A DNA stretch of 64,000 nucleotides from Escherichia phage FL23. Each line of letters starts with the position of its first letter. Position 1 is the first letter of the stretch. Location of the stretch: sequence record PP400787. One strand, given 5' to 3'. A model generated the notes under the pieces. The model ran no database searches. It was not told where the DNA came from and saw nothing but the letters and a program-made list of their open reading frames with translations. The translations under genes were made by a program, and so were the position numbers. Positions 55,868 to 57,428 of the stretch are shown piece after piece.

Positions 55868-56356
55868 ATGAATATATTTGAAATGTTACGTATAGATGAA
55901 GGTCTTAGACTTAAAATCTATAAAGATACAGAAGGTTATTACACTATTGGCATTGGTCATTTGCTTACTAAAAGTCCATCACTAAGTGTTGCTAAATCTG
56001 AATTAGATAAAGCTATTGGACGTAATTGCAATGGCATAATTACCAAAGACGAGGCTGAAAAACTCTTTAATCAGGATGTTGATGCTGCTGTTCGTGGAAT
56101 TTTGAGAAATGCTAAATTAAAACCAGTTTATGATTCTCTTGATGCTGTTCGCCGCTGTGCATTGATTAACATGGTCTTCCAAATGGGAGAAACCGGCGTA
56201 GCAGGATTTACTAATTCTTTACGTATGCTTCAACAAAAACGTTGGGATGAAGCGGCAGTAAATCTAGCCCAATCTAAATGGTATCGTCAGACACCTAATC
56301 GCGCGAAACGCGTAATTTCAACATTTAAAACAGGAACTTGGAAAGCGTATATATGA
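55868..56356 (+). CDS. e: Endolysin, T4 lysozyme (e)
   Basis: 162-aa [36 protein letters not shown]... with catalytic Glu11/Asp20 context. Confidence 0.9.
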
Positions 56357-56634
56357 AAACATATAGTGAATTTTTATCAGAATCTATTCTTAACGAAGCT
56401 ACTGACACATTTGCAACTAAGCTAGGTGCAGCTTTGGTTGAAGCTGAAAGTCTATTAGCACGTATTTCTGAACTTGCTAGTAAGATAGATACTCGCAAAT
56501 TTGAGCGCACCAGTGATATCGTTAAGCTTGAAGCCTTGTTGCGTATGTGCGATAAACCGGAAGAAATCGCTAAGAACGGCTCGTTGATGAAACAGCGTCT
56601 TGAAAAATATATTTCAGGCGCTTCAGAAAAATAG
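56353..56634 (+). CDS. Internal-protein-like capsid-targeted protein ([13 protein letters not shown]...)
   Basis: 93 aa from ATG 56353 (ATGA overlap with e stop); paralog of ORF 48413-48670. Confidence 0.6.
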
Positions 56635-56635
56635 T

Positions 56636-56689
56636 GTTTACTTCCTCCAAGGGTTTTGATACTATACATTCATCAACTACTTGGAGGAA
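56636..56689 (+). promoter_or_regulatory. Early promoter with SD-sequestering stem-loop (PeSL-like)
   Basis: GTTTACT, 17-nt spacer, TACTAT (56660-56665); 10-bp inverted repeat 56642-56651 / 56680-56689 whose 3' arm contains SD GGAGG. Confidence 0.6.
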
Positions 56690-56692
56690 ATT

Positions 56693-56795
56693 ATGACCCG
56701 TCCGAAGCGTCCATTGCGATAAGTCAAGCACGCTTAGATAAAAAATTGCTCAACGCCCGACTTGGTACAAATACTTTGGTAAATCAATTTACTAA
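56693..56795 (+). pseudogene. denV: denV (endonuclease V / pyrimidine-dimer glycosylase) relic: start codon context plus about 30 C-terminal codons, frameshifted
   Basis: ATG-ACC-CGT (MTR) then out of frame; frame A reads [12 protein letters not shown], frame B (after A6 run 56740-56745) reads [16 protein letters not shown], matching my recollection of T4 DenV C-terminus (...[32 protein letters not shown]); about 105 internal codons are absent. Confidence 0.6.
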
Positions 56796-56801
56796 GGAAA
56801 A

Positions 56802-56987
56802 ATGAAAATGTATCAAGAATTTATCGTTGAAGCAGATGCCAAAGGTCCTAAATTTAAAGTTAAAGCTTTCATTGGTGATGCGGAAGACTTTGGCTCATTA
56901 AAACGTAATGGGTATTCTTTCTTAGGTGGCGATGGTAAAGAAATCAAAACACCTATGCAAAACGTAGTGAAATTGCTTATGTTGTAG
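56802..56987 (+). CDS. Internal-protein-like capsid-targeted protein (CTS MKMYQEFIVE...), possibly truncated by frameshift
   Basis: 61-aa ORF with SD aagga; a second open frame 56939-57064 continues with protein-like sequence. Confidence 0.5.
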   Translation: MKMYQEFIVEADAKGPKFKVKAFIGDAEDFGSLKRNGYSFLGGDGKEIKTPMQNVVKLLML

Positions 56988-57067
56988 CAAGTCCTAAAGT
57001 AGATGTTGACGATATTGGATATGATTTTAACAACTTCGGAATTATTTCTGGCGGTAAAGCTTAAACG

Positions 57068-57097
57068 GTTTACGCTTAAGTATTAATATGGTATAAT
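57068..57097 (+). promoter_or_regulatory. Early promoter
   Basis: GTTTACG, 17-nt spacer, TATAAT (57092-57097). Confidence 0.6.
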
Positions 57098-57125
57098 TAC
57101 TCTATCAAAACAAACAAGGAAACAT

Positions 57126-57428
57126 ATGAAAACGTATAAAGAATTTATTACTGAAGCGCGAGTGAGTGCAGGTAAATTATATGCCGCTATAAATAAAAAG
57201 GCCCATTCATTTCATGATTTGTCCGATAAAGACCGTAAGAAACTTGTAAGCCTTTATATTGACAAAGAGCGTATTCTCGCTCTTCCTGGCGCTAATGAAG
57301 GTAAACAGGCAAAGCCTTTGAATGCTGTTGAAAAGAAAATTGATAACTTTGCTTCTAAATTCGGTATGTCTATGGATGACCTTCAGCAAGCGGCTATCGA
57401 AGCAGCTAAAGTAATTAAAGGTAAATAA
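57126..57428 (+). CDS. Internal-protein-like capsid-targeted protein (CTS MKTYKEFITE...; IPII-like size)
   Basis: 100-aa ORF with SD aagga and CTS-like N-terminus. Confidence 0.6.
   Translation: MKTYKEFITEARVSAGKLYAAINKKAHSFHDLSDKDRKKLVSLYIDKERILALPGANEGKQAKPLNAVEKKIDNFASKFGMSMDDLQQAAIEAAKVIKGK

Follow-up and report, generated by a model that had tools for sequence, protein, structure and literature searches.

Small internal proteins (IPs) that share a capsid targeting sequence (CTS) at the N-terminus have been described in T4 and other T-even phages. Polymorphic IP loci, the shared leader and the activity of T4 Ip1-3 against GmrSD are described by Repoila et al. 1994, Arbiol et al. 2010 (PMC2839356) and Silas et al. 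2025. According to the summaries in PMC2839356 and PMC9026906, Repoila et al. 1994 (EMBO J 13:4181) had already concluded that the cassettes are shuffled. Publications from 1994 onwards thus cover the leader, both polymorphic loci, recombination via conserved 5′ ends and the anti-GmrSD role. Each of T4 Ip1, Ip2 and Ip3 inhibits its own GmrSD enzyme, distinct from those of the other two (PMC12373910). IPIII remains active in the cytoplasm when its CTS is absent (PMC9391042), and mutagenesis of IPIII showed that leader residues 4, 7, 8 and 10 matter (PMC9026906). For Ip5 and Ip6, a literature search returned inositol-phosphate papers only, and Petrov et al. 2010 makes no mention of internal proteins.

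The window, which is the whole stretch of 64,000 nucleotides analysed here, aligned with Escherichia phage FL44 as one piece at 100.0% identity over 24.5 kb. On sequence comparison, it is a T4-like coliphage, a Tequatrovirus effectively identical to FL44, and positions 56353-57428, flanked by T4 synteny on both sides, are the e-proximal polymorphic IP locus with three CTS-led cassettes. The gene preceding these cassettes, e (55868..56356, + strand), encodes a 162-aa orthologue of T4 lysozyme with 90.5% DNA identity to T4 e. Its C-terminus is altered to TWKAYI before the stop codon, homology to T4 e stops at 56351, and the e stop overlaps the start of 56353 (ATGA). A motif search located two TATAAATA late-promoter motifs upstream of e (55834-55841 and 55847-55854, + strand), which are the only such motifs able to drive late transcription into e and the downstream CTS genes; no such motif was found near ip5 (48413) or ip6 (48747). 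The cognate protease and scaffold are both encoded in the window, on the − strand: gp21, the prohead core protease that removes the CTS (18141..18779; Peptidase_S77, E 1.5e-111), and gp22, the scaffolding core protein of the structure to which the CTS directs its cargo (17301..18110; T4_CASP, E 1.3e-89). Sequence identity, the paralogy, the truncation, the deletion and the crossover point described below are, like these two genes, observed directly in the window.

The T4 CTS opens all three ORFs of the locus (56353-56634, 56802-56987 and 57126-57428, + strand), as the first-pass annotation had reported. It had also counted six CTS genes in the window, and this number is correct (48413, 48747, 51802, 56353, 56802 and 57126), with three qualifications: the leader of 48413 is not MKTYxEF(I/L)xE but of the IPI type, 56802 is an allele truncated by a frameshift, and the second 57B-proximal gene starts at 48747, not 48735. 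In six-frame translation of the window, the strict motif MK[TM]YxEF[IL]xE gave five matches and the looser MKx[YF]xEF gave six, all on the + strand and at the start of an ORF. The IP loci of T4 extend from 57B to trna.4 (here 48413 and 48747) and from e to vs.8 (here 56353, 56802 and 57126), and 51802 lies outside both, between rnaC and e.8; every match is thus located in one of these loci or between them. ORF 56802 starts with MKMYQEFIVE and 57126 with MKTYKEFITE. Position 4 is Y or F and position 7 is F in all six ORFs, and residues 4, 7, 8 and 10 are kept in 56353, 56802 and 57126. Candidate gp21 sites of the form (I/L)-x-E are LSE10 and LNE15 in 56353, IVE10 in 56802, ITE10 in 57126 and ITE15 in 48413, the last resembling ITE19 of T4 IPI.

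The three ORFs of the locus are short (61-100 aa), and a Pfam search with the six CTS proteins assigned none of them significantly to a family, which could suggest that the common N-terminal motif is a compositional artefact of AT-rich ORF starts and that the ORFs are unrelated. Against this, 300 first-order Markov simulations of the window gave mean match numbers of 0.0 for the strict and 0.027 for the looser motif, compared with the six found at ORF starts in or between the T4 loci. Moreover, PHROG matches of the CTS proteins have E values of 1e-12 to 1e-54, and identical proteins carry internal head protein annotation in hundreds of genomes. A chance origin of the motif is refuted by the simulations, the PHROG matches and the alignment of 48413 with 56353, and we give it practically no credence. 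The three genes after e are, by homology, genuine members of the T4-type internal-protein family.

The first of them (56353..56634, + strand) encodes a 93-aa CTS protein of the Ip5 family, and its paralogue (48413..48670, + strand) encodes an 85-aa Ip5 that is 100% identical to RB15 Ip5 (GenBank Z35082, deposited 1994) and has a 15-residue IPI-type leader, MKTFKEFATKTTITE, ending in ITE. Homology of the two had been proposed on first reading, and pairwise alignment is highly significant (48% identity over 84 aa, E=1e-24). Each gives a full-length match to phrog_3499 'internal head protein', with E values of 1e-47 to 1.2e-46 for 56353 and 1e-50 to 1.2e-49 for 48413. In VR20, the e-proximal Ip5-like gene already bears the annotation 'ip5', and comparison with that gene gave a dN/dS of 0.135 for 56353, indicating purifying selection. 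A word-indexed protein search with 56353 found near-identical relatives only, and an exhaustive profile search of 1.84 billion proteins resolved the Ip5 family into about four subtypes, all CTS-led; hence, there is no distant family from which to borrow a function. The AlphaFold model of 56353 is all-helical, with three helices at residues 4-44, 53-65 and 69-91 (pLDDT 81). Foldseek comparison of this plain helical bundle with the PDB gave nothing better than E=3.7, so that the fold is uninformative on function, and no hit below E=0.4 was obtained when the sequences of 56353 and 57126 were searched against the PDB.

The two Ip5-family genes lie 8 kb apart on one strand, and both loci are made of similar repeats, as might be expected if they had arisen by duplication inside this phage genome and not by recombination between phages. 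However, only 48% of their amino acids are identical, their DNA similarity is confined to one 20-nt stretch (repeat family D8), and each copy is 98-100% identical to copies that occur alone in hundreds of other phages. Records with the e-proximal type number 238 and those with the 57B-proximal type 268; about 10 of the 496 phage records having either type have both, against about 86 expected under independence. This rarity of double carriers fits two old lineages joined recently by recombination, and duplication within this genome is highly improbable.

The third gene (57126..57428, + strand) encodes a 100-aa IpII orthologue (phrog_7857, E 3.6e-54) with 91% identity to T4 IpII over 100/100 aa (E 3e-66; nine residues differ). 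T4 Ip2 inhibits the GmrSD/BrxU enzyme of E. coli ECOR21, an activity shown for T4 Ip2 only (PMC12373910). At the other locus, 48747..48980 (+ strand) encodes a 77-aa Ip6 with the leader MKTYQEFIAE (phrog_8111), the same protein as that annotated Ip6 in fFiEco06.

Compared with T4, the window has a 659-bp insertion between the rnaC terminator and e.8 (51715..52373, + strand), flanked by 28-nt copies of the terminator hairpin (51687-51714 and 52374-52401). It carries the CTS ORF 51802-52365 of 187 aa, with a predicted mature form of 19.6 kDa and pI 9.5 and a poor structure model (pLDDT 59.8). At the same site, fFiEco06 has a non-homologous 157-aa gene with the CTS-like leader MKSYTQFLNE, and the terminator hairpin is duplicated around this insert too. 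Among 40 records sampled from the 164 holding the 51802 gene, none gives it an internal-protein annotation. We tentatively suggest, at somewhat less than even confidence, that rnaC-e.8 is a third IP cassette site and that the Ip5 paralogues, which are almost mutually exclusive, could be redundant inhibitors of one host target; if they are redundant, FL44-like double carriers would be informative. These two points, 51802 at a third site outside the published loci and the rare co-occurrence of Ip5 paralogues, may be less documented than the rest.

Comparison with intact alleles indicates that 56802..57064 (+ strand) is a broken gene for an 86-aa CTS protein (phrog_2667). A 2-bp insertion has produced a run of four A at 56946-56949, where intact alleles have two; the open frame therefore ends at 56987 (61 aa), the native C-terminal 37 residues are missing from the product, and the original 3′ part is readable in another frame to 57064. 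The intact form of 86-87 aa occurs in W143, BF15, VR20, SP18 and most of 216 records. A nine-residue similarity to T4 IPIII (KGPKF..KA) could suggest a deletion derivative of that gene; we attribute it to chance, since 56802 plainly belongs to the 86-aa family as one of its alleles. The truncated product may be non-functional. It could instead be a functional 61-aa internal protein packaged through its CTS: the CTS and the first 50 residues are intact, in T4 the CTS by itself suffices to package foreign proteins (PMC9026906), and the insertion is also found in at least FL44 and Pu-Krd-SF5, a persistence that makes sequencing error unlikely. However, several genera share the full-length form, with 62-70% identity, and it predominates among the 216 records; the 11 residues added after the frameshift are translated out of frame, and the old 3′ end, still intact in the other frame, suggests a recent lesion. 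A working short protein is therefore rather unlikely, and we favour the reading of 56802 as a pseudogene.

The gap before this gene (56635-56801) holds a remnant of denV, aligned at 56691..56801 (+ strand). It retains a start codon with a nine-codon ORF (the start and eight further codons), followed by C-terminal denV codons out of frame, and an intact denV ORF of about 138 codons is absent from the locus. Imperfect 13-bp repeats, AATTATGNCNCGT, border a deletion of about 298 bp whose junction is at 56689-56701, and the identical deletion is present in BF15 and FL44. In T4, intact denV follows ipII, whereas in the window its remnant lies between IP genes.

From e to vs.8, T4 has the order e-ipIII-ipII-denV-vs.8, and the window has e, the Ip5-like gene, the denV remnant, the truncated 86-aa gene, ipII and vs.8. 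Both order and content differ from T4, in agreement with the first-pass annotation. Seven genomes (T4, T2, fFiEco06, W143, BF15, Pu-Krd-SF5 and window/FL44) gave seven different contents of this interval, and VR20 gives an eighth order. Moreover, the promoter and first five codons of the window ipII precede different gene bodies in W143 and BF15, which places a recombination crossover within CTS codons 6-8 of 57126 (57141-57149). Cassette shuffling, which had been suggested from the altered order, is directly supported by the seven gene orders together with this crossover inside CTS-coding sequence; its prior publication, the truncation of 56802 and the survival of denV only as a deletion remnant had been overlooked.

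Repeated modules combining a promoter with a stem-loop lie at cassette borders. A scan with generic sigma-70 and terminator models performed no better than on shuffled sequence, and the T4-type GTTTAC modules were located by hand. The module at 56636..56690 (+ strand; fold −19.1 kcal/mol, repeat family D6) has a GTTTAC −35 box directly after the stop codon of 56353 and GATACTAT as its −10 region, and its stem, CCTCCAAG...CTTGGAGG, base-pairs with the Shine-Dalgarno of the former denV start codon. An early-promoter-like module with a Shine-Dalgarno and a weak stem (57068..57125, + strand; GTTTAC, 17-18 nt, TATAAT) precedes ipII here, a 104-aa Ip10-like gene in W143 and ipIII in BF15. The cassette block ends with a third module (57431..57490, + strand), whose homologue is found directly after e in T4 and fFiEco06. 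At the 57B-proximal locus, a repeat search found three copies of a 71-nt family, D2 (48324-48394, 48655-48725 and 48953-49023, + strand), with GTTTAC boxes at 48352, 48683 and 48981; they bracket the ip5 and ip6 cassettes, and the repeat extends into the last codons of 57B and ip5 (DLK and stop). No promoter module of their own was found upstream of 56353, which is coupled to e via ATGA, or upstream of 56802, which follows the denV remnant. The present gene order probably arose by homologous recombination between the repeated CTS-coding 5′ ends and between the repeated early-promoter/stem-loop modules that bracket the cassettes.

By analogy with T4 experiments, packaging, cleavage, injection and an anti-restriction role may be extended to these proteins. 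A leader of about 10 residues, aromatic at position 4 and Phe at position 7, would bind the gp22 core and take the protein into the prohead, where gp21 would cut after (I/L)-x-Glu, that is, after E10 in most of them but after E15 in Ip5 and perhaps also 56353. The leader further suggests that the mature small proteins would be injected with the DNA, and they would then act stoichiometrically against a first-line host defence, the most likely targets being certain variants of GmrSD, type IV restriction enzymes directed against glucosyl-hmC DNA. Similarity of 56353 and 56802 to T4 IPs is limited to the first 11-26 residues, and mature-domain homology to a proven GmrSD inhibitor (Ip1, Ip2 or Ip3) is present only in 57126 and absent in 56353 and 56802.

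Packaged proteins might alternatively serve as generic basic counter-ions or head filling, with their diversity reflecting drift in dispensable genes. Predicted mature forms are mostly basic (pI: Ip5 9.2, IpII 9.7, 51802 product 9.5, 56353 product 8.1), about 1000 IP molecules lie within the packed DNA of a T4 head (PMC3012670), ten ip genes were inactive against new GmrSD systems (PMC12373910), and truncation of one of the three genes, 56802, brings no apparent harm to the phage. However, basicity is not shared by Ip6 (pI 6.5) or by the intact 86-aa protein (pI 4.9), the GmrSD targets of all three T4 IPs are specific and non-overlapping (PMC12373910), and the purifying selection on 56353 argues against drift. 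A counter-ion role is thus quite improbable. We consider it very probable that the whole explanation holds, namely an IP locus of three CTS cassettes whose products are packaged, cleaved by gp21, injected and active against restriction, and whose order was made by recombination.

IP loci can be regarded as a natural library of pre-made injected anti-defence proteins, for which targets are known for T4 Ip1-3 only. In the FL44-type inventory, five CTS genes appear intact, one is truncated, and a working denV is lacking. This inventory leaves current understanding unchanged, and it is useful for choosing candidates in anti-restriction screens and for interpreting the host range of therapeutic T4-like phages.

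Compared with known systems, the window resembles T4 IPI-IPIII (Ip1-3) in having the same leader, two loci and the protease and scaffold partners, with 57126 as the IpII orthologue and 48413 bearing the longer IPI-type leader that ends in ITE. It differs from T4 in that ipI and ipIII are absent and that, past the leader, 56353 and 56802 have no relationship to any T4 IP. Among Ip4-Ip10 of T-even phages, 48413 corresponds to Ip5 of RB15 (100%) and 48747 to Ip6 of fFiEco06, whereas the 86-aa family and the 187-aa product of 51802 have no Ip number in the database records examined. The crossover found here matches the model of Repoila et al. 1994, in which a conserved leader serves both packaging and recombination.

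The PeSL cassettes of RB49/phi1 (PMC2839356) likewise have repeated promoter-plus-stem-loop modules right after the upstream stop at cassette borders, and one upstream module is joined to different gene bodies in different phages. In contrast, the window has modules of T4 early-promoter type, with GTTTAC and AT-rich stems, which count as analogues and not homologues according to PMC2839356, and the crossover lies in CTS-coding sequence, not in a promoter module. Hotspots of anti-CRISPR and other anti-defence genes in phages are also similar: small, non-homologous, fast-exchanged accessory genes cluster at constant positions among conserved genes, and variants of a single host defence family are their presumed targets. 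Unlike these, IP products share a packaging leader, and would arrive pre-made with the DNA instead of being expressed after entry.

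Three ORFs with a capsid targeting sequence (CTS) at their start are located downstream of lysozyme gene e, at 56353-56634, 56802-56987 and 57126-57428, where the first-pass annotation had placed them, and the last begins with MKTYKEFITE. In the six-frame translation of the window, MKx[YF]xEF was found six times, each time at the start of an ORF on the + strand, and simulated sequence of the same composition gave a mean of 0.027 matches. The proposed homology of ORF 56353 to ORF 48413, a CTS gene following 57B, was borne out by pairwise alignment (48% identity over 84 residues, E=1e-24), and both proteins matched PHROG 3499 'internal head protein' end to end. 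ORF positions, motif count, alignment and PHROG matches thus confirm the observation, and with it the total of six CTS genes.

On the + strand, genes run in the reverse of T4 order. Gene 1, 57A and 57B are followed by the CTS genes ORF 48413 and ORF 48747, then by trna.4, trna.3, trna.2, a tRNA cluster with segB, and a region homologous to T4 rnaD/rnaC. Next come the CTS gene ORF 51802, e.8, e.6 to e.2, nudE and e, and after e are ORF 56353, a gap, ORF 56802 and ORF 57126, then vs.8, vs.7 and vs.6. Over its last 24.5 kb, the window aligns in a single piece and at 100.0% identity with Escherichia phage FL44 (PP400790), a Tequatrovirus from pig faeces in Denmark, whereas all other phage records (50,697 searched) align with this part only as 7-11 pieces. 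The vs.8 product has 183 aa versus 219 aa in T4, and vs.8 and vs.7 are separate overlapping ORFs (57542-58398); FL44 is annotated with one fused 858-bp CDS over these positions, so either the sequences differ by 1 bp or the annotation is an artefact. The vs.6 product (58406-58768) is, as in T4, a GrcA-like autonomous glycyl-radical cofactor (..RVSGY..), which is ordinary, yet conspicuous for a phage genome.

The earlier claims of a gene order unlike that of T4, and of cassette shuffling as its origin, are both supported, since the interval from e to vs.8 is filled differently in each genome compared. This interval holds ipIII, ipII and the endonuclease V gene denV in T4, only ipIV in T2, and only denV in fFiEco06. 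W143 carries Ip5-like, denV, 86-aa, 104-aa (Ip10-like), ipIII and ipII genes; BF15 carries Ip5-like, a denV remnant, 86-aa, ipIII and ipII; Pu-Krd-SF5 carries Ip5-like, denV, a truncated 86-aa gene and ipII; VR20 carries ip5, denV, ip10, an 87-aa gene and ip7; and the window and FL44 carry Ip5-like, a denV remnant, the truncated 86-aa gene and ipII. The order of Ip10-like and 86/87-aa genes is reversed between W143 (86-aa first) and VR20 (ip10 first), which is a further cassette reordering. Moreover, ipII in the window shares its promoter region and its first five codons (..ATGAAAACGTATAAA) with the start of the W143 104-aa gene, the promoter region also matches that upstream of BF15 ipIII, and from codon 9 on the sequence is that of ipII. 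Hence, exchange occurred in the shared GAATTTATT, CTS codons 6-8 (57141-57149).

ORF 57126 is the IpII orthologue, with 91% identity to the T4 protein across its full 100 residues. Phage RB15 has an Ip5 (GenBank Z35082, 'Bacteriophage RB15 DNA for Ip5, Ip9, Ip7, Ip8') to which ORF 48413 is 100% identical; the leader of ORF 48413, MKTFKEFATKTTITE, belongs with the longer one of T4 IPI (MKTFKEFTSTTTPVSTITE) rather than with those of 10 residues. ORF 48747 encodes the protein that is named Ip6 in the fFiEco06 annotation. By homology, ORF 56353 is a second member of the Ip5 family. At its position, VR20 (genus Gaprivervirus) has an 89% identical gene annotated 'ip5, similar to bacteriophage T6 Ip5', and dN/dS between the two is 0.135, which marks ORF 56353 as a genuine gene kept by purifying selection. 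When 1.84 billion representative proteins were searched exhaustively with a profile, only about four Ip5 subtypes came up, each with a CTS start. The AlphaFold model of ORF 56353 has three helices (pLDDT 81), and no significant PDB neighbour was found for it. Ip5-family genes occur in 496 records, the e-proximal type in 238, the 57B-proximal type in 268 and both in only about 10, compared with about 86 expected if independent among roughly 740 T4-like records; by these raw record counts, which ignore kinship, the two paralogues are nearly mutually exclusive.

Two genes of the cluster are disrupted. The match of ORF 56802 to PHROG 2667 is confined to the first half of the family, and the window, FL44 and Pu-Krd-SF5 have two A more than W143 and BF15 in a short A run (56946-56949), which shift the frame and therefore end the protein at 61 aa; the former 3' part is readable to 57064 in another frame. 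Judged from these alignments, ORF 56802 is a broken gene. Among 216 phage records, most have the intact protein of 86-87 aa, which is kept at 62-70% identity in phages of other genera or other hosts (Shigella phage SP18, Salmonella phages STP4-a and Melville, and VR20). Similarly, denV is intact between the Ip5-like and 86-aa genes in W143 and Pu-Krd-SF5, and the window, FL44 and BF15 share one allele with about 298 bp deleted between imperfect 13-bp repeats (AATTATGNCNCGT). The remnant (56689-56801, within the gap 56635-56801) keeps the start codon with a 9-codon ORF and the last denV codons out of frame. The phage is therefore without endonuclease V, a UV-repair enzyme, and should be UV-sensitive like T2, which also lacks denV according to its annotation. 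Homology of e to T4 ends at 56351 and its stop overlaps the start of ORF 56353 (ATGA), thus the cassette junction is within the last codons of e; the C-terminus reads ..TWKAYI* versus ..TWDAYKNL* in T4 (56340-56356).

The cassettes are bracketed by repeated modules, in which a GTTTAC -35 box of T4 early-promoter type straight after the upstream stop codon (48352, 48683, 48981, 52522, 56636, 57068 and 57431) is followed by a -10 region and a stem-loop. The copies at the 57B locus overlap the final codons of both 57B and ip5. In the modules after ORF 56353 (56642-56689) and after ipII (57440-57481), with predicted folds of -19 and -25 kcal/mol, the 3' arm of the stem holds the GGAGG Shine-Dalgarno of the next gene. 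In T4 gene e, the ribosome binding site is hidden in read-through transcripts and exposed in others; by analogy, read-through transcripts would mask the site here, and transcripts begun inside the loop would expose it.

According to work on T4 summarised in PMC9026906, the first 10 residues of IPIII suffice to bring foreign proteins into the head; targeting involves residues 4 and 7, and cleavage by the gp21 protease involves residues 8 and 10. All four are kept in ORFs 56353, 56802 and 57126, and the window also contains the genes for gp21 (Peptidase_S77) and the gp22 scaffold. Most likely, the three leaders would direct transport into the head and gp21 cleavage as in IPIII. Candidate cleavage sites in the leader are ITE15 alone in Ip5, and both LSE10 and LNE15 in ORF 56353. 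Once injected, T4 Ip1, Ip2 and Ip3 disable GmrSD type IV restriction enzymes, each a different one (PMC12373910), and IPIII is active in the cytoplasm without its leader (PMC9391042). By orthology, IpII of the window probably blocks an ECOR21-type BrxU/GmrSD enzyme; the same general anti-GmrSD role for the Ip5-family and 86-aa proteins is only a guess.

ORF 51802 (187 aa, leader MKTYAEFLTE) is located outside both published internal-protein loci (57B to trna.4, and e to vs.8). Compared with T4, 659 bp that include this ORF are inserted between the rnaC terminator and e.8, with one copy of a 28-nt terminator hairpin on either side (51687-52401). Between these flanks, fFiEco06 carries instead a non-homologous ORF of 157 aa, alike only in its CTS-like leader MKSYTQFLNE. 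From this arrangement, the site looks like a third internal-protein cassette site; according to Arbiol et al. (PMC2839356), T-even genomes have no such genes outside the two loci. The gene is annotated 'hypothetical' in all 40 records sampled across the 164 carrying it.

The CTS cluster is thus correctly described and its interpretation supported, and the biology is already known, because it matches the published picture of these loci (Repoila et al., as summarised in Arbiol et al. 2010, PMC2839356, where Comeau et al. 2007 is cited for >30 internal-protein variants) and many GenBank records already label the proteins as internal head proteins. The rarity of Ip5-paralogue co-occurrence and the position of ORF 51802 may be less well documented. 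In size and charge, though not in sequence, the predicted mature product of ORF 51802 (177 aa, pI 9.5) is similar to T4 IPIII.
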